From: a virus
Taxonomy: Duplodnaviria > Caudoviricetes
DNA length: 64,000 nt
IMG/VR virus record: IMGVR_UViG_3300037602_000037
Strand: one strand, 5' to 3'
Shown: in pieces, positions 1,302 through 19,730 of the stretch
How the letters are laid out: each line of letters opens with the position of its first letter
Numbering within the stretch: position 1 is the stretch's first letter
Notes under the pieces: generated by a model
What the model was told of the DNA's origin: nothing
Database searches by the model: none
What the model saw: only the letters and a program-made list of their open reading frames with translations
Translations under genes and position numbers: made by a program

Positions 1302-4205
1302 GTGGTAGAACTATCAGTTACACGATCTAAGCTTAAAATTGGTAAGACCAAAGTTAAGACGCAAACAGTTATTGTAGGAAGTGGTAAGAAAAATATCATT
1401 ATATTCGACGACTACTTTAACTTAGATGACGAGCAATCTTATGACACGTTTAACTCTATGTGCTACCAAGTATGCGCGTGTCTAAAGAAAGGCTTCACGT
1501 TTATATATGTGGGTACTAATGGCTTAGAAAGTAGTGGTTTAGAAAAGATTATTGACAAGTATGAACCCTCTGGAATACTATACGTAGACTCAGCTCCATT
1601 TACTAAAATGGGGCTTTCTTACATTAAGTACTTCAGTTATGTTAGAGAACATAATGGTGTACCAAGTTGTCTATCTACCCCGATGTATAAATGGTCTTCT
1701 AGTTCCGAGTACAAAAAGGGTGAAGGGCCCAAAAGTATAATAGGCTTTAATTTGAAGCACCTTACTTGGGTCGCTCAAGGTAATAACGGTTTCGAAGATT
1801 ATTCCCATTTGTTCAAGGATTTTCCTATACGAATAGTAAAGACTTTGAATCAATTCAAGAAAATGTATTATAAGCTTAAAAAGGCTGATGTAGTTTGCTG
1901 CGACATTGAGGGTAAGGGTCTAAAGCTTATTACCAACACGGTATACACTGTACAATTTGGTATTTGGGAAAAAGGTAGGATTGTAACATACGTATTACCA
2001 TGGAAACATAGGGACCACGTATGGAATAAGAAGCATCTGAGATTAATAAAACGAGGTTTGGTTAAACTGTTCTCCGATGAGAAAAAAGAGTTTGTTTTCC
2101 ATTCTTCATCCTACGACGTAGGACAACTTTGCCACATTACTAACATGGACGTGTTTCCTGCTCCTATATATGATACTATCTCCGGTATATTTGCAGAAGA
2201 TGAAAACTGGAAATTTTTAGATAAAATATATAGGTCAACTGAATGGTCTAAGGGTTACTTCTCCCCGTATTCTCTTGAAACTCTAGAACATAGACACAAC
2301 TTATTTAGGCCAGGTGATATACTTGAAAAAGATGATCGTACTAATATGTCACGATTCTCTTTGGACGAAATAGCCACATACGGTGCTTATGACGTAGTAT
2401 CTCCATTGATAATACGTAAGCAGCAAATTCAGCGGTCTACTAGTAAGTGGGTAGGATATAAAACTAAAAAAGATTATCTAAATCTGGTATTGTACCAACT
2501 TGGTGTAATGCAAAAAACCTTTTCTCTTTTGAATAGTAAGGGTATTCATATTGATAGAAGTAATTTGGCTGAATTGACCAAGAAGAATAACGTGTTTATA
2601 CAAACAGTTGATAGAATTACTAAGGAACTGTTGAACACTAAACATGGCAAAAAAGCGAATAGGCTAATCTTGCGTAAAAATGGTATAGAACCTTCTGGTG
2701 GATTATTTTCTACGGAAGAAGCTATTGCATTCTCAATGACTAAGCCTGCGCATAGACAAATGCTATTCTTCAAAGTAATGAAGTTAGAAGCTACCTCTAT
2801 AGGCAAATCAGGCGATCCTTCTACTAACAAGGCTTTCCAAAATAAGTATAAGGATATTGAAGAAGTAAAATTATTCTCGCATTTCAACAAAGTTCGTACT
2901 CTTAAATCTAACTTTGCAGATTCCATCAATAAGATAACAAAAAATGATGAAGATTATGCCGTAGATGGAAGACTTCGTAGTATATTTAGTTTTATTCGAG
3001 TTTTGACTGGTAGGTTGTCAACACAACCAAATACACAGAATATACCATCAAGATCAGACGCTGACTTCGAGATACATAAGGATCTGGTTAAGGCTATCAA
3101 GAAACTATTCTCCGTTGCTCCTGGTAGAGTGATGCTTGGATCAGACTTTTCCGCCCATGAAGTTAGAATGTCAGGAGATATTGCTAAGGACAAAGCTATT
3201 AGACAAGCTTTCTTGGCTGCTAATGAAGCTATTAGAAAGTACAGGTTAGCTCCCGATAAATTTGTTGAAGCTGCCGCTAAAATTCTTGCTAGAGAAGGCG
3301 ACATCCACATAATCAACGTGAGGTTCTTCTTTAAACAAGACATTGATAAGAGCCATCCTTTACGATACAAGATTAAAGCAATCGTGTTTGGTGTTTTGTA
3401 TGGTAAGATGGCTAAGGGTCTAGCTAAAGAACTAAAAATTGAAGAATCTGAAGCACAATCTCTTATTGACATTATGTTCGAAAGATGGCATAGCCTAGAT
3501 AGTTGGATACATACTACGCACGATGAAGGTAAAAATAACTTCATGATCCACTATCCTAATAATCGTATCCGCCATTTGTGGGCGTATATGCATGAAGATA
3601 TTTGGGCACACAGAGCTATGGACAGGCGCGGGGTTAACTCCGTCATACAAGGTTTTAGTTCGGATATTGGTGTGGTAGCAGTCGATACCTACAAAATGTG
3701 GGTACACAAAAATATTACTAAAAACGGTTTCAACTTCGATGCTTTCCATACTAATATTGTACATGATGCTCAGTATTCTGATGTTTTGTATGAGCATCTT
3801 CCTTTTGCTATTTACTTAACTGAACATTCTATGTCAACACTTCCTATGGACTACTACAAAGACAAATTTGACTACGAGATTAGTATTCCTTTGAGTTACG
3901 GCCTTGAATTTGGTAAAGACTGGGGAAGCTTAGAAGAATGGAACTTCCGAGTAAACGGTTACGATAGTACCAAAGAAAAAGACGGCAAAACTAGTAAGAC
4001 ATACGTACCCGGATTGCTAGACATGATACGTGATGAAGGTAAGAGAGTTGATAAACCTTACGATGAAGTTATTAAAGATACTAAGTTTATTATGGGTGTA
4101 AGACAAAAAGAATTGGAGAAAAACCCATACAAAATGTTGGTTAACTCTAAAACAATAGATAAGGTTTTCGACAAAATGTATATGTTTAGAAAACAACTGA
4201 ATTAG
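1302..4205 (+). CDS. polA: family A DNA polymerase with 3'-5' exonuclease
   Basis: ExoI CDIEG, ExoII HSSSYD, ExoIII YGAYD; TGRLS..PN.QNIP; motif A SDFSAHEVR, motif B RYKIKAIVFGVLYG, motif C IVHDA. Confidence 0.95.
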   Translation: MVELSVTRSKLKIGKTKVKTQTVIVGSGKKNIIIFDDYFNLDDEQSYDTFNSMCYQVCACLKKGFTFIYVGTNGLESSGLEKIIDKYEPSGILYVDSAPFTKMGLSYIKYFSYVREHNGVPSCLSTPMYKWSSSSEYKKGEGPKSIIGFNLKHLTWVAQGNNGFEDYSHLFKDFPIRIVKTLNQFKKMYYKLKKADVVCCDIEGKGLKLITNTVYTVQFGIWEKGRIVTYVLPWKHRDHVWNKKHLRLIKRGLVKLFSDEKKEFVFHSSSYDVGQLCHITNMDVFPAPIYDTISGIFAEDENWKFLDKIYRSTEWSKGYFSPYSLETLEHRHNLFRPGDILEKDDRTNMSRFSLDEIATYGAYDVVSPLIIRKQQIQRSTSKWVGYKTKKDYLNLVLYQLGVMQKTFSLLNSKGIHIDRSNLAELTKKNNVFIQTVDRITKELLNTKHGKKANRLILRKNGIEPSGGLFSTEEAIAFSMTKPAHRQMLFFKVMKLEATSIGKSGDPSTNKAFQNKYKDIEEVKLFSHFNKVRTLKSNFADSINKITKNDEDYAVDGRLRSIFSFIRVLTGRLSTQPNTQNIPSRSDADFEIHKDLVKAIKKLFSVAPGRVMLGSDFSAHEVRMSGDIAKDKAIRQAFLAANEAIRKYRLAPDKFVEAAAKILAREGDIHIINVRFFFKQDIDKSHPLRYKIKAIVFGVLYGKMAKGLAKELKIEESEAQSLIDIMFERWHSLDSWIHTTHDEGKNNFMIHYPNNRIRHLWAYMHEDIWAHRAMDRRGVNSVIQGFSSDIGVVAVDTYKMWVHKNITKNGFNFDAFHTNIVHDAQYSDVLYEHLPFAIYLTEHSMSTLPMDYYKDKFDYEISIPLSYGLEFGKDWGSLEEWNFRVNGYDSTKEKDGKTSKTYVPGLLDMIRDEGKRVDKPYDEVIKDTKFIMGVRQKELEKNPYKMLVNSKTIDKVFDKMYMFRKQLN

Positions 4206-4513: not shown

Positions 4514-4930
4514 ATGCTACAAATATACTCAGAATTTCAAAAACCTGTTCAAAGTATACTATTTAAAGCTAACGTAAGAGCTTCTCAAATAAAGTTTGTG
4601 CCAAACTGTCATCCTAGAACGTACTTTGATGAGTCAAATACCCCAGGTAGCTATGTTGTGGAATTACCATTCCATATTGACTGTAACTACGCTTTATACG
4701 TATTAGCCCATGAATGCGCCCATGTATTTTATAAACATTTAACTGACAACATAGGTAAACCTATTTATATTAAAGAGTATGAAGCTGAAATGTGGGCAAT
4801 TAAAATATTGTCTGATTTTGGTATCAAGTTATCTGATACTACAGTAAATGAGATAAAAGACAACATTCGATACAGTATTAAAGGACAATCAAACGTCCCT
4901 TTGCATATTTCTGAATGGATTTCTAGTTAG
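4514..4930 (+). CDS. ImmA/IrrE-like zinc metalloprotease
   Basis: LAHECAH (HExxH) followed by EYEAEMWA. Confidence 0.7.
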   Translation: MLQIYSEFQKPVQSILFKANVRASQIKFVPNCHPRTYFDESNTPGSYVVELPFHIDCNYALYVLAHECAHVFYKHLTDNIGKPIYIKEYEAEMWAIKILSDFGIKLSDTTVNEIKDNIRYSIKGQSNVPLHISEWISS

Positions 4931-12833: not shown

Positions 12834-13292
12834 ATGATGATAACCGACCGTCGTATAAAAATTGGAATTATGGCTTTGGACCCTAAAGCTTGGCATCCTG
12901 AATATGCTACTAAGGGTTCTGTTGGAGCTGATTTGAGAGCCTGTATAGACAGTCAAATCGAAATTGGTCCCGGACAAACAAAAGTAATATCGACTGGTAT
13001 TGCTATTGACCTGCCCTATAATTACGCGGCGGAAGTGCGTAGCCGTTCGGGTATGGCCGCTAAAAATAGTGTGGTAGTAGCTAATAGCCCTGGTACTATC
13101 GACTCTGACTACAAGGGCGAAATAAAAGTAATTTTGATTAACCATGGGGATAAGGATACCATAATATTCCCGCGTCAGCGTATAGCGCAGCTAGTTATTG
13201 TACCGGCTTACCGAGCGGACTTTGAAAGTATATACGAAATGACAGAATCTACCAGAGGTAAAGGTGGATTAGGTTCAACCGGTAATGAATGA
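12834..13292 (+). CDS. dut: trimeric dUTPase
   Basis: GADL, RSRSG, GTIDSDYKGE, RIAQL, RGKGGLGSTG motifs. Confidence 0.97.
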   Translation: MMITDRRIKIGIMALDPKAWHPEYATKGSVGADLRACIDSQIEIGPGQTKVISTGIAIDLPYNYAAEVRSRSGMAAKNSVVVANSPGTIDSDYKGEIKVILINHGDKDTIIFPRQRIAQLVIVPAYRADFESIYEMTESTRGKGGLGSTGNE

Positions 13293-13326
13293 AAAACGTT
13301 TAGTAAACCAAACGAAGGAAGATAAG

Positions 13327-13533
13327 ATGAAACTGAATGAAGTTGTGGAAGTTCGTGGTGTTACAAAGAAGGGCAAGGACCGAGTAAAGCGTCACGGCAG
13401 CAAATGGAAGGTTATCCGTACTAGCGGTAACGGATTTCTTTTGAGTTCGGTGGAAACACAGTACAATAAGTGGGTTTACACAAACGTTAAAAACGATTTC
13501 GAGGTAGTCCGAAATCTCGAAAACGTGGGCTAA
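13327..13533 (+). CDS. small hypothetical protein
   Basis: AAGGA SD before ATG at 13327 (MKLNEVVEV). Confidence 0.55.
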   Translation: MKLNEVVEVRGVTKKGKDRVKRHGSKWKVIRTSGNGFLLSSVETQYNKWVYTNVKNDFEVVRNLENVG

Positions 13534-13540
13534 TTATCGT

Positions 13541-13898
13541 CTTGAGCTAACGGTAAAGTGCCTACGTTAGGATCGTAGTTCTCCCCGCTCTACGATCCGA
13601 AACTCAAGTGGTAGTAAACTGTCCTGCTACCTTTTGGTGATAGAAATTGTCGTGGACAGTTTGGCAATAACGCCCTCCCGTACCGGCATCTAACAAACGG
13701 GATGATAGACTGACAGGAAGGAAAAGACTTCAATGTGGAGAGGGAAAGTAAAATTTCCCTCTCTGCGACCTTTGTAATTAGGCGAGTGTTGCTGAAGTCA
13801 TTAGTGTAGACAAGGTGCGGCCCATTAGCGGGACAGCGATCTGGTTAGGCCAGCCGGAGCTAGATAAACACCGTCGCAACATTCACCTAATTACAAAG
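13541..13898 (+). ncRNA. array of structured non-coding RNA modules upstream of tRNA-Leu
   Basis: Tandem stems CTTGAG/CTCAAG, AAACTGTCC/GGACAGTTT, TCCCGT/ACGGGA, GAGAGGGAAA/TTTCCCTCTC and a ~22 bp stem at 13770-13898. Confidence 0.55.
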
Positions 13899-13908
13899 TA
13901 TAATTCGT

Positions 13909-13992
13909 GGCCACGTGTCGGAATTGGTAGACGATGGGGACTTAAAATCCCTTGCCTAGTGCGTGCGGGTTCGACTCCCGCCGTGGCCACCA
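13909..13992 (+). tRNA. tRNA-Leu(UAA)
   Basis: GGCCACG/CGTGGCC acceptor stem, anticodon TAA at 13943-13945, long variable arm, GTTCGA, CCA end. Confidence 0.95.
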
Positions 13993-14031
13993 ATTATACT
14001 TTGGTAAGCAAATGTGAAAGAGGAATCACAT

Positions 14032-14265
14032 ATGGGTGCTAGACTTTTAGAAAACGAAGATATTGATAAGTTTATTCCTGAACTCAAAAAGTTAGACGAC
14101 GTAGGATACGTCGAGGAAGGTCCAGTGGATGAGCTTAGAAAAGAGATAGAGCTTCGAGTTGGTTACCCCATTGCTCGTTCTTTGTTCTTTAGATTGATTA
14201 AATATGAGATGGCAGAACGGTACATAGAAAAGGTGTTAAATTCCAAGGAAGATTCAAATGGCTAA
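14032..14265 (+). CDS. hypothetical protein
   Basis: GAGGA SD before ATG at 14032. Confidence 0.55.
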   Translation: MGARLLENEDIDKFIPELKKLDDVGYVEEGPVDELRKEIELRVGYPIARSLFFRLIKYEMAERYIEKVLNSKEDSNG

Positions 14266-14494
14266 AACAACTGGCACTGTCTCAATTGGGGACGAAGTAG
14301 ATTGCGGCGGCGCTGTAGGTAAAGTAAAAGCAATTGAAGGAGCTTACGTAATAGTTAAAGGTGTTTATGACTACGGCGGTTTAGTAGAACCTTACACTTT
14401 TGAATACAAAAAGGAAGAACTAGAAGCTTGTTCTATTAATGAGTGTAACCAACGGGATGCTTCTAATTTGGAACATGGTTACGTGGTAGCTTAA
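14258..14494 (+). CDS. hypothetical protein
   Basis: ORF track, SD present. Confidence 0.55.
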   Translation: MAKTTGTVSIGDEVDCGGAVGKVKAIEGAYVIVKGVYDYGGLVEPYTFEYKKEELEACSINECNQRDASNLEHGYVVA

Positions 14495-14599
14495 ACTTGA
14501 AATTAGGGTGTGTCGTCTTTAATGACATTAAATCGCTGTTGAATAATCGACTGGCTAAGTAGATTTGCGTTCTACCCCTTGTACCTTGAAAGGTAAATT

Positions 14600-14872
14600 A
14601 TGAGAGATGCTGATTTTGACAGTTTTTTAATTGATCCTTATAAAAAAGCTACTTATGAAGATAATAAAAAACAACGCTATTCCATCGTGGAACCGGAATA
14701 TGAAGAAGGTGATCCAACTTGGTCCGTATTATGTCATTATCAGGAAGAAGAAATTGAAGATGGTGAAGTTGTATTGTCCGGAGGCACTAAAACTTTAGGG
14801 TTGTTTCATTCAAAGCAAAGGGCGGTTGACTTTATAGTAAAAGATAGGAAAGCCAGGAAGATACATTTATGA
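14600..14872 (+). CDS. hypothetical protein
   Basis: ORF track. Confidence 0.55.
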   Translation: MRDADFDSFLIDPYKKATYEDNKKQRYSIVEPEYEEGDPTWSVLCHYQEEEIEDGEVVLSGGTKTLGLFHSKQRAVDFIVKDRKARKIHL

Positions 14873-15204
14873 CTACTACTAGTGAAGTAAGAAACGTTTG
14901 CGTTAGGATATACCCCAACGGTGAAGTAAAGTATTCTGTCAGAGACGAGGAAGGTACTAAGAGTTGGCTAGAGTATAACTCTGTATACCGTTTTGGAAAC
15001 ACGCTTTTCATCAATAGAGTGTACCAAGAAAAAACGGGATATGTTAGACCCGGTCAAAAGAACTTTGAATTGTTCCAAGAATTTGTTAATTCCTTCGAAC
15101 CGGAAGATAGTGTAGAAAGGTTCATTCGTGGTGATAATGAAGAGGGTTTTCCTTACTACCATGATGATATTCATGGGCCTTTAATTGAAGTAATCTATGA
15201 ATAA
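14869..15204 (+). CDS. hypothetical protein
   Basis: ORF track, ATGA overlap. Confidence 0.55.
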   Translation: MTTTSEVRNVCVRIYPNGEVKYSVRDEEGTKSWLEYNSVYRFGNTLFINRVYQEKTGYVRPGQKNFELFQEFVNSFEPEDSVERFIRGDNEEGFPYYHDDIHGPLIEVIYE

Positions 15205-15253
15205 CGTATCTGATGAGTTTGTGAAACTCAAACGTAACCAGAGTACTAAGTAG

Positions 15254-15433
15254 GTGAGGCTACTATAAATAATCCTCACAAGTTAGGGCGTCTGCTATAT
15301 GTGATTGGTGTAATCGGTGTTAGCTACCGAGTATAGTAGGTGAAAGCCCTTCCAATTGTTGTTGCTATTCGGTTTGGGGTCGCGACCTAAGCGTATTGCG
15401 GAGTATGAGTTCCGTCAATAACAATTGGAGAAG
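15254..15433 (+). ncRNA. structured non-coding RNA modules
   Basis: Stems GTGAGG/CCTCAC; AGGGC..TCTGCTATAT/GTATAGTAGG..GCCCT; TCCAATTGTTGTTG/CAATAACAATTGGA enclosing two hairpins. Confidence 0.5.
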
Positions 15434-15436
15434 ATT

Positions 15437-15472
15437 GGGTGCTTAGCTCAGCTGGTTAGAGCAACCGCCTTA
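15437..15472 (+). pseudogene. 5' half of interrupted tRNA (Val(UAC)-like)
   Basis: GGGTGCT-TA-GCTC-AGCTGGTTA-GAGC-A-ACCGC-CT-TA, then the tRNA pattern breaks off. Confidence 0.85.
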
Positions 15473-15476
15473 TTTT

Positions 15477-15550
15477 GGGAGTATAGCTTAGTGGTAAAGC
15501 AATCGACTTTTAATCGATTGACCCGAGTTCGATCCTCGGTGCTCCTACCA
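15477..15550 (+). tRNA. tRNA-Lys(UUU), nested
   Basis: GGGAGTA/TGCTCCT acceptor, ATCGA-CTTTTAA-TCGAT anticodon arm, GTTCGATC, CCA. Confidence 0.95.
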
Positions 15551-15574
15551 ATTAATTCGAACTAGAATACTAAT

Positions 15575-15603
15575 TCTTTTATATCGCGGGTTCGATATAA
15601 GGA
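15575..15603 (+). promoter_or_regulatory. hairpin overlapping the SD of the HNH gene
   Basis: TTTTATATCG-CGGGTT-CGATATAAGG pairs into AAGGA upstream of ATG 15612. Confidence 0.55.
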
Positions 15604-15611
15604 TTTATAAT

Positions 15612-16208
15612 ATGAAAAAATTTTTAAGGTGTAATGGTTATATTTTGTTGTATAAACCAAAACATCCTAGAGCTTTTTCAAAAGGTAAAGCAGGTAAGAA
15701 CGGATTAGCAGGATATGTATATGAACATATTTACGTAGCCGAACGAAGTATGCATAGAAGACTTAGACCGGAAGAAGATGTCCATCATATGGACTTAGAT
15801 AGATCAAATAATTCTTGGGATAATTTGTTAGTATTGGAAAATACTCAACATGGTAAATTACACGGATTCCTTAAATCTATTGGGTTAAAAGAAAATAATG
15901 TTGGACATAGTCAGCGTAAATATTCAAAAATACCTCGATGCTGCATATGCAAATTTCCTTTACGTAAAGGACAGGATATTACGTGTTCGATTAAATGTGA
16001 TAGAATCAAAAGAAAAAATAATGCAAAAGTTAAAGTTTCCTGTAAAAAATTACATAAACAGTTATCCAAACATTCTTGGGTTAAAGTGGCTGCTTACTAC
16101 GGTTTGTCAGATAACGGACTTAGAAAACACGCAAAGTCTATTGGATTAACTGTATCCGATTATAAAGGTGGTAAATTTGTAGGATACAAACAACCTGAGT
16201 TCAATTAG
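15612..16208 (+). CDS. HNH homing endonuclease (HNH + Zn finger + HTH)
   Basis: YVYEHIYVAE..DVHHMDLDRSNNSWDNLLVL..HGKLH; CCIC..CSIKC; C-terminal SWVKVAAYYGLSDNGLRK. Confidence 0.9.
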   Translation: MKKFLRCNGYILLYKPKHPRAFSKGKAGKNGLAGYVYEHIYVAERSMHRRLRPEEDVHHMDLDRSNNSWDNLLVLENTQHGKLHGFLKSIGLKENNVGHSQRKYSKIPRCCICKFPLRKGQDITCSIKCDRIKRKNNAKVKVSCKKLHKQLSKHSWVKVAAYYGLSDNGLRKHAKSIGLTVSDYKGGKFVGYKQPEFN

Positions 16209-16242
16209 TAGGTCGTGGGTTCGAGTCCCACAGCACCCACCA
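16208..16242 (+). pseudogene. 3' half of interrupted tRNA (Val-like)
   Basis: GT-AGGTC-GTGGG-TTCGAGT-CCCAC-AGCACCC-ACCA; AGCACCC pairs perfectly with GGGTGCT at 15437. Confidence 0.85.
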
Positions 16243-16260
16243 ATATTTTGGAGAACATCA

Positions 16261-16371
16261 ATGCGTTTAACTATTTACTGTATTTTTATTACTCTTTTCG
16301 TATCATCCTGTGGTATTATTCCTAAGAACTGTTCTCAAGACGAGTACTTAACCAACAGTTTATGCAATTAG
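16261..16371 (+). CDS. small putative lipoprotein (36 aa, not in ORF track)
   Basis: GGAGA SD; MRLTIYCIFITLFVSSC lipobox-like sequence. Confidence 0.55.
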   Translation: MRLTIYCIFITLFVSSCGIIPKNCSQDEYLTNSLCN

Positions 16372-16382
16372 CGAGATTTTCT

Positions 16383-16736
16383 ATGAGTGCTTATACCAAG
16401 CATAATTCAAAATTTTATTATTCTCTTGTAGATGATAAGTACTCAGTAATTGACCCCGTTACTTGGCATGTAGGTTCCATTTATGGTCCTACTATTGAAG
16501 TGCCTGAAGACTTCAATTTCGATGTATCGATACCTAAAATACTGGTTTGGTTATTCGATCCGCACGATAAACGTTATATTAAAGCTGCTTGTTTGCACGA
16601 TTACATGCTAAGTGAACTTAAGTGGAATAGGTTAACAGCCGCTGCTGAATTTCATGAAGCTTTATTGGCAGATAAAGTACCTATTTGGAGGCGGTTAGTT
16701 ATGTTTTTGGCTACTGCTTTGTATAGGTACAAATAA
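16383..16736 (+). CDS. DUF1353-family protein
   Basis: VPEDFNFDVSIP...AACLHDY...VPIWRR. Confidence 0.75.
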   Translation: MSAYTKHNSKFYYSLVDDKYSVIDPVTWHVGSIYGPTIEVPEDFNFDVSIPKILVWLFDPHDKRYIKAACLHDYMLSELKWNRLTAAAEFHEALLADKVPIWRRLVMFLATALYRYK

Positions 16737-16756
16737 TATTATCATAGGATACGATA

Positions 16757-17029
16757 ATGTCAAATAAGCTTATTAAAACTGTTACTGAGGTGAGCGCTCT
16801 ACCTATTGAAAATGCTCCGAAAGACGGTACACTAATTAAGCTACTAGTTGATTATTCAGGTAAAGAATCCCGTTATCCGTTAGATGATTTGAAAGTGGCG
16901 TGGACTATTGGTTTTAACAATCTTGACAATACAGAAATAGACGAGTGGGAAATGGTAGGATGGAATTGGTCACAAGACCATTTTACTAACGGTAAAGGTA
17001 AGGTAATAGGTTGGCTTCCGTTCTTTTAA
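16757..17029 (+). CDS. hypothetical protein (PIENAPKDGT motif, DUF551-like)
   Basis: Motif recognition, AGGA SD. Confidence 0.6.
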   Translation: MSNKLIKTVTEVSALPIENAPKDGTLIKLLVDYSGKESRYPLDDLKVAWTIGFNNLDNTEIDEWEMVGWNWSQDHFTNGKGKVIGWLPFF

Positions 17030-17047
17030 CGTAACATATAGTATGTT

Positions 17048-17071
17048 GGGCTTGTAGCTCAATTGGTTAGA
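17048..17071 (+). pseudogene. 5' fragment of interrupted tRNA (Ile-like)
   Basis: GGGCTTG-TA-GCTC-AATTGGTTA-GA, then the tRNA pattern breaks off. Confidence 0.8.
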
Positions 17072-17080
17072 TATAGTTAC

Positions 17081-17156
17081 GGGGGAGTAGCTCAATGGTT
17101 AGAGCCAGTTGCTCATAACAACTTGGTTGCAGGTTCGAGTCCTGTCTCCCCTACCA
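17081..17156 (+). tRNA. tRNA with CAU anticodon (elongator Met or Ile2), nested
   Basis: GGGGGAG/CTCCCCT acceptor, AGTTG-CTCATAA-CAACT arm, GTTCGAGT, CCA. Confidence 0.93.
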
Positions 17157-17171
17157 ACTGTTAGGTGTATA

Positions 17172-17717
17172 ATGAAAGTATCTTGTACTACAAAAGAAAC
17201 TAGGAAGCGAGATAAATTTTTGTTACCTTATTTAAGGAAACTATTTATTATAGACCAAGGTAAAGGTTTGGTACGTAGTAAATATTCGGGTAAACTAGTA
17301 GGTAAACCTCGTAATAAAAACTCTTATGGAGGTATAGGATTAAAAATAAATGGTAAATGCTATTTTATTAATACCCATAGGGTTATTTGGTTAGTATCAA
17401 AAGGTCTTGTACCCGTAGGTTACGTTATAAACCATAAAAACGGAGTCAAAAGTATATCTAAAATATCTAATTTAGAATGCATTTCAGCCGGAAATAATCA
17501 AAAACACGCTTACAGAAATAAATTGAGAAATATTTCTAATAATCCAGGTTCTAATAACGGCAATGCTCTTTTTACCAATAAACAGGTTAGTAAAATTCGT
17601 AAATTGTTTATTGGTAAAAAGAAAAGTAGAAATAACTTTTACAAAGTAGCTAAATTTTATGGTGTTTCTACCAATACAATACGTTCTATGGTAAACAATC
17701 AAACGTATAAAACATAA
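17172..17717 (+). CDS. HNH homing endonuclease (HNH + C-terminal HTH)
   Basis: HRVIW...INHKNG...SNLECIS..NN.KHA; KVAKFYGVSTNTIRS; true ATG at 17172 with AGGTG SD (the ORF-track start lies inside the tRNA). Confidence 0.88.
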   Translation: MKVSCTTKETRKRDKFLLPYLRKLFIIDQGKGLVRSKYSGKLVGKPRNKNSYGGIGLKINGKCYFINTHRVIWLVSKGLVPVGYVINHKNGVKSISKISNLECISAGNNQKHAYRNKLRNISNNPGSNNGNALFTNKQVSKIRKLFIGKKKSRNNFYKVAKFYGVSTNTIRSMVNNQTYKT

Positions 17718-17753
17718 GATTGGTTGGGGGTTCGAGTCCCTCCAGGCCCACCA
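17718..17753 (+). pseudogene. 3' fragment of interrupted tRNA (Ile-like)
   Basis: GAT-TGGTT-GGGGG-TTCGAGT-CCCTC-CAGGCCC-ACCA; CAGGCCC pairs with GGGCTTG at 17048. Confidence 0.85.
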
Positions 17754-17829
17754 TACTATATGCTATTCAAATTCCGCAATGGTGCGGATAGGCGGTTGCG
17801 GCCGTCGCTTTCGACTATAGGAGATAAGT

Positions 17830-19073: not shown

Positions 19074-19100
19074 AACGGTTTAATTTGAATGGAGATACAT

Positions 19101-19730
19101 ATGACTAAAGTAGTTATTCCCTTGACAGGTGGAATGGACTCTTCCTACATGGTGTACAAAGCCCTTAATATGGGCTTAGACGTTTACCCTCTTATCTTTG
19201 ACGATAGTTATGGTGGTTACTCCATGAGAGATAAGACTATCAAACCAGCTATTAGGGTACTACAACAAGCAGGACTTGCCCACAAAGTTCACATCATACC
19301 CTTCTTTCCCACCAATGTACATAAACTATCTGATGAGCACTACGGTTACACTCCGGGTAGGAATATGCTAATAGCTATGTCTAGTGTTGCTTATGCGGAG
19401 TTTGTTGGTGCTGATGAAGTATGGCTGGGTTTCAACGCTTCACAAGAAGGTTTTTACCCTGATCAAAATCAAAAAATGTTTGATGACATTTCTAATCTGT
19501 ATGAAAGCGTTTACAATTTCAAGGTCACCATTGTTCTTCCTCTTTTAGAAATGACTAGAAAGGAAGTAGTAATTTGGGGTACTCAGCTAGGAGTACCTTT
19601 TGAAGAGACTGTTAGCTGTGTTAATACACCAATATCTGTAAATTGTGGTAAGTGTAACAGGTGTAAAGAACGAAAAGAAGCTTTTAAGTCAGCTGGTATA
19701 CCGGATAAAACCATCTACTATGGGGATTAG
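19101..19730 (+). CDS. queC: QueC-like 7-cyano-7-deazaguanine synthase family protein
   Basis: TGGMDS PP-loop, PGRN, YPD, TVSC...CGKCNRC..R zinc motif. Confidence 0.85.
   Translation: MTKVVIPLTGGMDSSYMVYKALNMGLDVYPLIFDDSYGGYSMRDKTIKPAIRVLQQAGLAHKVHIIPFFPTNVHKLSDEHYGYTPGRNMLIAMSSVAYAEFVGADEVWLGFNASQEGFYPDQNQKMFDDISNLYESVYNFKVTIVLPLLEMTRKEVVIWGTQLGVPFEETVSCVNTPISVNCGKCNRCKERKEAFKSAGIPDKTIYYGD

Follow-up and report, generated by a model that had tools for sequence, protein, structure and literature searches.

Complete tRNA genes and HNH endonuclease genes nested inside two broken tRNA genes of a pond-metagenome phage

Layout of the two cassettes

The phage record IMGVR_UViG_3300037602_000037 is a virus assembly from pond metagenomes, with a genome of 165.8 kb and 38% G+C that encodes a contractile tail, the sheath of which shares 38% identity with the sheaths of Rhizobium phages. 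In the stretch of 64,000 nucleotides (nt) analysed here, called the window, two transfer RNA (tRNA) genes are each interrupted by a complete second tRNA gene followed by an open reading frame (ORF) for an HNH endonuclease. The initial annotation, made from the window sequence by itself, had described two such nested cassettes, in which a 5' tRNA fragment, a spacer of 4-9 nt, an intact tRNA, an HNH gene and a 3' fragment follow one another, and this layout is confirmed by our analysis. ARAGORN called three intact tRNA genes in the whole genome; all three lie in the window, and two of them are those carried by the cassettes. The features are as follows.

Cassette 1 with its broken gene, 15437-16242
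15437-15472, plus strand: outer tRNA-Val(UAC), 5' part; tRNA positions 1-35, comprising acceptor strand, D-arm, 5' anticodon stem and loop CTTA (15469-15472)
15473-15476, plus strand: TTTT spacer at the irregular 5' junction, read directly
15477-15550, plus strand: carried, intact tRNA-Lys(UUU) with CCA (ARAGORN; Rfam tRNA, 71.8 bits)
15551-15611, plus strand: 61-nt spacer with a short hairpin and the HNH1 ribosome-binding site, read directly
15612-16208, plus strand: HNH1, 198 amino acids; HNH_3 nuclease, CxxC...CxxxC zinc ribbon, C-terminal helix-turn-helix
16202-16242, plus strand: outer tRNA-Val(UAC), 3' part; C36 A37 A38, TTAGT stem strand, variable loop, T-arm, acceptor strand, ACCA

Cassette 2 with its broken gene, 17048-17753
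17032-17047, plus strand: leader of outer tRNA 2, pairing with the trailer (inverted repeat; native-style extended acceptor helix)
17048-17071, plus strand: outer tRNA(CAU), 5' part; positions 1-23, ending inside the D stem
17072-17080, plus strand: 9-nt spacer at the irregular 5' junction, read directly
17081-17156, plus strand: carried, intact tRNA(CAU) with CCA (ARAGORN; Rfam tRNA, 65.7 bits)
17172-17717, plus strand: HNH2, 181 amino acids, from the ATG after AGGTG; HNH_3 nuclease and C-terminal helix-turn-helix
17713-17753, plus strand: outer tRNA(CAU), 3' part; CATAA from C34, shortened stem strand, variable loop, T-arm, acceptor strand, ACCA
17754-17765, plus strand: trailer of outer tRNA 2, pairing with the leader (inverted repeat)

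Outside the cassettes
13909-13992: tRNA-Leu(UAA), intact and native (ARAGORN)

Both strands of the genome were scanned for a T-arm and 3' acceptor strand with a fully complementary 5' acceptor strand and D-arm at most 3.5 kb upstream. The scan returned the three intact genes, the same two split genes and one weak, AT-rich false match. The outer fragments had been credited with a full 7-bp acceptor stem, a T-arm and ACCA, and the pairing is indeed 7/7 in both cassettes; at a threshold of 6/7 the test is not specific, giving 8 candidates in 2.5 kb.

A single 47.6 kb contig of run X2, at 345x, spans 13000-17749 with zero differences, and separate low-depth contigs from three other pond runs bridge each of the four junctions, which shows that the layout is no assembly chimera. 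The X2 contig ends at 17749, tRNA repeats being sites where contigs break.

The gene interrupted by cassette 1 can be identified from 41 bacterial tRNA genes that are identical to its first 26 nt, 40 of which are Val genes, with 30 bearing the anticodon TAC. These genes continue with the loop CTTACAA, the variable loop AGGTC and the acceptor strand AGCACCC, and CAA, AGGTC, an intact T-arm, AGCACCC and ACCA are all present in the 3' part (16202-16242). As the Val-type loop runs from CTTA directly into CAA, the insertion point falls exactly between A35 and C36, with every base of the loop retained. The 5' acceptor strand pairs 7/7 with 16232-16238 over a span of 804 nt, and the 3' part overlaps the last codons of HNH1 and its TAG stop (16206-16208, outer tRNA positions 40-42). 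Damage to the exons is limited to the anticodon stem, whose 3' strand is TTAGT instead of the required GCGGT (three mismatches). The earlier statement that anticodon-arm bases are missing was thus imprecise for this gene, in which the CTTA/CAA loop is complete and only the stem strand is altered, while it holds for cassette 2. In terms of repertoire, Val-UAC is lost and Lys-UUU is present, an alteration of the kind that had been anticipated.

The T-run ahead of the carried tRNA-Lys recurs at two loci of HNH1 relatives (L025 and L023; locus numbers refer to the comparison below), and the spacer at 15551-15611 is, as judged by eye, partly homologous to that of the related phage G001 (L025). A T-arm-like 12-mer in this spacer is better read as part of a weak hairpin, the counterpart in G001 being a long hairpin; the fold of the spacer in the window is not significant (z -0.86).

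Outer gene 2 is more heavily damaged: positions 24-33 are absent and two bases are also gone from the 3' stem strand, although the acceptor pairing is again 7/7, over a span of 704 nt. The TAA stop of HNH2 (17715-17717) coincides with T36-A37-A38 of the outer loop, and the 15 nt between the carried tRNA(CAU) and HNH2 include a ribosome-binding site. In a contig of a foreign organism (run X7), 17071 is connected to 17720 by 19 nt, the addition of which yields a regular tRNA bearing the anticodon CAT, and outer gene 2 is therefore a tRNA(CAU). This contig skips the cassette; its upstream flank is foreign and it represents another organism's intact tRNA(CAU), so it was rejected as an empty allele. 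The carried tRNA(CAU) is a tRNA for Met, or for Ile2 if lysidine-modified, and its sequence cannot separate the two. With their anticodon arms damaged in these ways, neither outer gene can give a decoding tRNA.

The leader and trailer of outer gene 2 form an inverted repeat of 26 nt with 85% complementarity. The same feature surrounds the intact tRNA-Leu(UAA), where it measures 22 nt with 95% complementarity (13894-13915 / 13982-14003), and no such repeat was found around the carried tRNAs in the inverted-repeat listing. The helix common to outer gene 2 and tRNA-Leu marks the former as native in style. A second inverted repeat, of 23 nt, lies just upstream of tRNA-Leu (13770-13792 / 13876-13898), and the repeats at 13770-14003 may be processing stems for the native tRNAs of the phage. 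Another inverted repeat, of 23 nt with 91% complementarity and a 10-nt loop, occurs inside the HNH2 coding region (17567-17622) and may be a regulatory or processing hairpin.

Both nuclease ORFs stand alone, with stop codons within the anticodon arm of the outer tRNA, and both proteins match Pfam HNH_3 above the cut-off (HNH1, 27.2 bits against 24.8; HNH2, 35.9 bits). HNH1 keeps all invariant residues of a 25-member alignment (A1), i.e. the catalytic histidines and asparagines and the four zinc-ribbon cysteines, and HNH2 keeps those of the alignment of its small subfamily (A4). The two proteins share only a stretch of 25 residues in the C-terminal helix-turn-helix and hence belong to different families. 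No further copy of either gene was found in the genome. Sequence searches of the PDB with HNH2 and with an HNH1 profile gave no match, and no kinship to a solved nickase is therefore claimed.

The absence of an intron core, an integrase and a target-site duplication had also been noted, and this stands. Rfam detected no group I intron or other ribozyme in either cassette, even at E<=10 on small regions, whereas the same tool gives 56-84 bits for members of the HNH1 family that lie in introns (L026, L030, L047 and others). Neither outer gene was called by ARAGORN with introns allowed. Insertion in the anticodon loop, as in group I introns, is seen in both cassettes (A35|C36 in cassette 1; the 3' junction at C34 in cassette 2), but no catalytic core P3-P9 is detectable and the exons do not join into a regular tRNA. 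The genes do not resemble archaeal-type split tRNAs either: their halves are incomplete and no pairing of the inner ends is listed (no search for a splicing endonuclease was made). There is no ORF of integrase size in the cassettes or next to them, and no flanking direct repeat was found beyond an 8-nt match, noticed by eye, that resembles a ribosome-binding site.

Relatives of the nucleases and the surroundings of the cassettes

Homologues of HNH1 reach 58% identity. Those of phiKZ, Psa21 and the Bacillus phages McCartney and PBC2 all lie within tRNA clusters, and in phiKZ, Psa21 and McCartney an annotated tRNA is located 67-158 nt upstream of the gene. A profile search of IMG/VR gave 38 full-length loci of the family, about 30 of which have a tRNA or split tRNA at the ORF. 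Eleven distinct loci, or 17 when near-duplicates are counted, are located in Rfam-positive group I introns of 56-84 bits, which interrupt tRNA anticodon loops after 35-36 nt, the intron start given by ARAGORN being as in cassette 1; the intron-borne members are L026, L030, L034, L036, L043-L047, L050, L051 and L055. Two further distinct loci show a split tRNA without an intron match, and five distinct loci are at most 70 nt downstream of an intact tRNA.

The nested layout itself recurs in relatives, as had been proposed. It is complete in L029 (206 kb contig) and L039 (180 kb contig), both with 7/7 acceptor pairing, L029 having an Arg-CCU-like outer tRNA and a CAU cargo. L025 shows the same arrangement with 6/7 pairing, a canonical D-arm in the fragment and an outer pair of different sequence, and is probably nested as well. 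In a maximum-likelihood tree HNH1 groups with L015, L025, L014 and L023 (support 94/91), which have no intron and come immediately after an intact tRNA (Lys in three cases, Leu in one), while 8 of the 11 intron-borne proteins cluster away from this clade. The tree requires at least two origins of the nested state, and this, together with the lack of kinship between HNH1 and HNH2 outside their 25 common residues, bears out the suggestion that the architecture arose more than once.

The expectation that nuclease and cargo tRNA form a linked unit is likewise borne out, in that tRNA-Lys(UUU) and an HNH1 relative occur together in four different flanking contexts. In L014 the tRNA-Lys is 92% identical and the nuclease about 50-57% identical to those of the window, with unrelated flanks, so that tRNA and nuclease stay together as their surroundings change.

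Several side observations were made at these loci. In L014 (164 kb contig), hammerhead-ribozyme-like motifs flank the tRNA-Lys and HNH unit at 3513-3571 and 4557-4598 (E 0.002 and 0.013, both below the Rfam gathering scores); one of them is immediately 3' of the nuclease stop, and long non-coding stretches surround both. A twister-P3-like match in L058 is also below its gathering score. Transfer-messenger RNA (tmRNA) genes of 79-131 bits lie about 0.3-0.8 kb from the HNH1-family gene in L047 (1571-1930), L050 (1799-2141) and L041 (3273-3668), the nuclease gene being in an intron-bearing tRNA in L047 and L050. The HNH1 homologue of G001 (L103, 10790-11501) is broken into two overlapping reading frames, through a sequencing error or through a frameshift, the latter of which would suggest that the gene is decaying.

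The three closest homologues of HNH2 show 46-53% identity. In all four members of this close subfamily, HNH2 included, the ORF ends in (C/G)ATAA of the 3' half of a tRNA(CAU). The 5' sides of the three homologues differ, ranging from more or less complete to degenerate or unmatched (in L017, L021 and L162 the 5' half is degenerate or fails to match), and there is no carried tRNA. The initial annotation had predicted alleles without an insert, and relatives of HNH2 do provide such alleles. G001, of 174 kb, is related to the window phage and has a 55% identical tail sheath; the tandem of tRNA-Leu(UAA) and tRNA(CAU) to which L017-L022 are homologous is split in those loci and uninterrupted in G001, which consequently carries an empty allele.

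A second case is found in the Bacteroides phage crAss001, whose HNH protein gp99 (L007, 1844-2444; 32% identity to HNH2) begins 16 nt after tRNA-Arg(CCU), a second T-arm and acceptor end starting exactly at its stop codon. The single intact tRNA-Arg of PhiCrAssBcn4 aligns first with the 5' segment of its crAss001 counterpart and then, from the T-arm on, with the displaced fragment and the sequence downstream. PhiCrAssBcn4 and Bcn22 both have the empty site (L011 and L012 are among the loci compared with crAss001), and in PhiCrAssBcn14 the nuclease gene is missing its first 311 nt. On this comparison the crAss001 unit carries only a replacement 3' segment.

As for the surroundings of the cassettes, a non-coding stretch of 232 nt lies ahead of cassette 1 (15205-15436). 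It contains a 14-bp stem (15351-15364 / 15416-15429), and its fold beats those of shuffled sequences (z -2.85). A hammerhead-like CUGAUGAG string near its start (about 15210-15238) was discarded, having no support from Rfam even at E<=10. Directly 3' of cassette 1, a small ORF (16262-16372) begins with a lipoprotein-like signal sequence (MRLTIYCIFITLFVSSCG...), and a comparable small ORF follows the matching cassette of G001 (L025, from about 3131 onward). A QueC homologue (7-cyano-7-deazaguanine synthase, E 7e-30) and a DUF1353 protein are encoded near the tRNA region (window ORFs QueC/DUF1353 at 19089-19730 and 16362-16736); the former suggests deazaguanine modification of DNA or tRNA, and a DUF1353 gene is also found downstream of the HNH1 homologue in L015.

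Nucleotide comparison (blastn) of the region with phage records gave matches at the level of the tRNAs only, and searches of viral contigs with the DUF1353 gene, HNH1 and HNH2 as single proteins returned no relatives. Abundant contigs of other pond organisms match the core of the carried tRNA(CAU) (17087-17144, 4 differences in 58 nt), which places this tRNA close to bacterial tRNAs of the same habitat, and they also match part of tRNA-Leu (13906-13951); the acceptor stems differ in both cases.

Origin of the cassettes and alternative explanations

Based on these observations, we consider it probable that two resident tRNA genes of the phage were invaded, independently of each other, by homing-endonuclease units that contain no ribozyme. 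Such a unit would consist of an intact tRNA gene, a short spacer and an HNH ORF that extends into the invaded gene as far as the anticodon loop, from which it obtains its stop codon. The tRNA-Val(UAC) gene would have been cut between A35 and C36, and the tRNA(CAU) gene entered immediately 5' of C34. On this reading both invaded genes are inactivated, and what persists of them at the flanks is a pair of dead half-genes. Because much of the HNH1 family sits in anticodon-loop group I introns, the cassettes may be regarded as ribozyme-less counterparts of tRNA introns.

The junctions suggest how the units might spread. The 3' junction, where the ORF is fused to the anticodon region of its target, is precise and conserved, whereas at the ragged 5' junction the resident gene breaks off at position 35, at position 23 or at another point, with between 4 and about 30 unrelated bases ahead of the carried tRNA. 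Such a combination would be expected after one-sided homologous repair. In a mixed infection, the nuclease would cut or nick an uninterrupted tRNA allele, and the 3' tRNA half that travels with the ORF would pair with the target as a homologous repair arm. Copying would then be primed through the ORF and on into whatever precedes it in the donor, which is a tRNA, and the other end would be resected and joined without homology, producing the shortened 5' fragment and the few extra bases before the carried tRNA. Illegitimate repair of breaks is known from intron acquisition in phage T4.

The carried tRNA would be copied along with the nuclease gene, and would either replace the lost function (cassette 2, CAU for CAU) or change the repertoire (cassette 1). 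The idea that the cargo offsets the cost of the insertion fits cassette 2 and crAss001, where the carried sequence may spare the phage a loss; it does not fit cassette 1 (Val against Lys) or L029 (Arg-CCU-like outer tRNA, CAU cargo), and these two exclude a general rule of like-for-like replacement. It is safer to describe the carried tRNA as linked baggage that sometimes compensates.

Several points weigh against the invasion of resident genes by mobile units. The Val-Lys pair of cassette 1 means that compensation cannot be the general rationale for the cargo. No uninterrupted allele of the window phage itself was found, the collections containing no close relative of it, and none of the contigs in four runs bypasses a cassette while keeping phage sequence at both ends; the prediction of empty alleles was thus realised in the relatives of HNH2 and not in the window phage. 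Relatives of HNH2 at 39% identity or less in IMG/VR show no association with tRNA genes, so that in this family the association is restricted to the close subfamily, crAss001 and J2-1. Finally, the one-sided repair route has a single basis, the precise 3' and ragged 5' junctions, and we infer the cutting and homing by HNH1 and HNH2, as well as any benefit of the carried tRNA, from sequence.

Among the alternatives, the one that deserves most attention is that the cassettes are decayed tRNA introns, i.e. that a group I intron with an HNH ORF entered the anticodon loop, lost its ribozyme by deletion and captured the upstream tRNA secondarily. The 11 distinct intron-borne loci of the HNH1 family, with intron starts at 35-36 like cassette 1, make such a descent plausible for the HNH1 family as a whole. 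For the two cassettes themselves we regard it as unlikely: neither gives any intron signal at E<=10, their ORFs end directly in the 3' tRNA half and leave no room for a 3' ribozyme core, the HNH1 clade is wholly intron-less, and no intron-borne member of the HNH2 subfamily was found. Intron decay would also leave unexplained why an intact tRNA lies upstream of the ORF in several independent cases. A different possibility, that the cassettes arose without any insertion, through local rearrangement or deletion in a tandem tRNA array beside an ordinary free-standing nuclease gene, takes some credit from the dense arrays in which phage tRNAs occur and from nucleases of both families that often lie between intact tRNAs (McCartney, PBC2, J2-1, L032, L033 and L052). 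Yet the two fragments of each cassette derive from one tRNA (7/7 pairing; Val-UAC consensus halves; tRNA(CAU) halves) and stand in the right order and orientation, and the same accident would have had to happen independently at least four times (twice in the window, in L029 and in L039), which makes this history very improbable. That the layout reflects a chimeric assembly or a chance resemblance is practically negligible as an explanation: the genome is a metagenome assembly and one contig does break at a tRNA repeat, but the deep X2 contig, the runs spanning all junctions and the genome-wide scan with its two clean matches leave almost nothing to support it.

It might also be asked whether the outer halves still function, either as a handle for processing or stabilising the nuclease transcript or by being rejoined into a usable tRNA. 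The full acceptor pairing and intact T-arms of both cassettes are in keeping with such a role, as are the 26-nt leader/trailer helix that persists around cassette 2 and the 6/7 pairing kept by the outer pair of L025 despite its different sequence. However, outer gene 2 has lost positions 24-33, outer gene 1 has three stem mismatches, the 5' halves of the homologous loci L017, L021 and L162 are degenerate or mismatched, and a 6/7 match is of low specificity, so that we give this possibility little credence, if marginally more than array rearrangement. The helix is likewise present on the intact tRNA-Leu; it is therefore inherited rather than evolved with the cassette, and the proposal of an anticodon-less tRNA mimic formed by the paired halves is not sustained.

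Taken as a whole, the interpretation offered in the initial annotation is partly supported: recurrence, independent origin, linkage to the carried tRNA, empty alleles in relatives and an altered repertoire hold, whereas cutting of intact tRNA genes, homing and immunity of the split allele are hypothetical parts of it. As for the invasion by ribozyme-free units, it can be extended to a wider claim, to which we give somewhat less than an even chance: the cassettes would represent a distinct and widespread lifestyle of homing endonucleases in tRNA genes, derived from or parallel to tRNA group I introns, in which a carried tRNA rather than splicing offsets the damage, the 3' half serves as a portable homology arm, and entry into unrelated phages rewrites their tRNA sets. 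In a bolder version of this claim, the acceptor/T-arm pair would be retained to direct RNase P and 3'-end processing of the nuclease transcript.

Known systems and significance

The nearest functional parallel is SegB of phage T4, a free-standing GIY-YIG homing endonuclease in the tRNA gene cluster, which recognises a T-loop motif of tRNA genes and drives the inheritance of the tRNA region; homing enzymes of T5 are mentioned in the same paper (PMC2330249). Like the nucleases described here, SegB is a selfish nuclease among phage tRNA genes, and by targeting tRNA gene sequence it co-converts neighbouring tRNA genes. It differs in belonging to another nuclease family and in lying between intact genes, without splitting a tRNA, and its activity is proven, while HNH1 and HNH2 are known here from sequence. 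Group I introns with endonuclease ORFs have been described in tRNA anticodon loops (bioRxiv 10.1101/2020.01.27.920355), and HNH1 shares with them both the protein family and the place of insertion. Those introns have a ribozyme and leave a restorable tRNA; the cassettes have no detected ribozyme, damaged exons and a whole extra tRNA. HNH genes are also embedded in mycobacteriophage tRNA arrays, where they have been linked to tRNA turnover; the accounts of this given in two papers (PMC5966550, PMC6409571) mention neither a nested split-tRNA anatomy nor a carried replacement tRNA.

The crAss001 gene gp99 resembles the cassettes in lying inside a tRNA gene, in having the displaced 3' end at its stop codon and in having an empty allele in a sister phage; only the T-arm and acceptor end are duplicated there and the resident tRNA remains whole, in contrast to the complete second tRNA and dead resident gene of the cassettes. 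Islands that bear an integrase insert in tRNA genes and restore the 3' end, with the displaced tRNA fragment marking the far end. They too bring sequence that makes good the interrupted tRNA, but the cassettes encode a homing-type nuclease, no integrase or direct repeats were found in them, and break repair rather than site-specific recombination is proposed. Another free-standing HNH homing endonuclease inside a gene without an intron is mobE of Aeromonas phage Aeh1, which is reported (Friedrich et al. 2007) to split nrdA into two genes; the split protein is said to work as two pieces, whereas the split RNA of the cassettes cannot work.

Homing endonucleases in phage tRNA clusters, HNH genes in tRNA arrays and group I introns in anticodon loops are thus already published. 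Full-text searches of the literature yielded no account of a ribozyme-free nuclease unit with a carried tRNA nested in a broken tRNA gene, and the paper 'Clades of huge phages' does not mention introns. What this locus contributes is the presence of two unrelated nuclease families side by side, a break mapped exactly to A35|C36 of a Val(UAC) gene, and the tie between a clade linked to tRNAs and relatives borne by introns that are inserted in the same region of the anticodon loop.

An AT-rich phage that translates in a host of different codon preference is helped by its own tRNA genes, and some phage tRNA genes act against host defences that cut tRNAs. In the window phage GTA makes up 38% of the Val codons, ATA 39% of the Ile codons and AAA 62% of the Lys codons. 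All the tRNAs considered here, living or broken, read heavily used A-ending codons, hence their gain or loss should matter to the phage. The window offers a compact natural test case, since 2.3 kb of it contain two nucleases unrelated to each other, together with two broken targets and two carried tRNAs. Cassettes of this kind also account for the orphan halves of tRNAs, and the odd 'intron-containing' calls, that are met in annotated phage genomes. If the proposed reading is true, a selfish nuclease would have a third way to occupy a conserved gene, besides self-splicing introns and intergenic residence, and mobile units of nuclease and tRNA would directly drive the gain, loss and replacement of tRNAs between phages.

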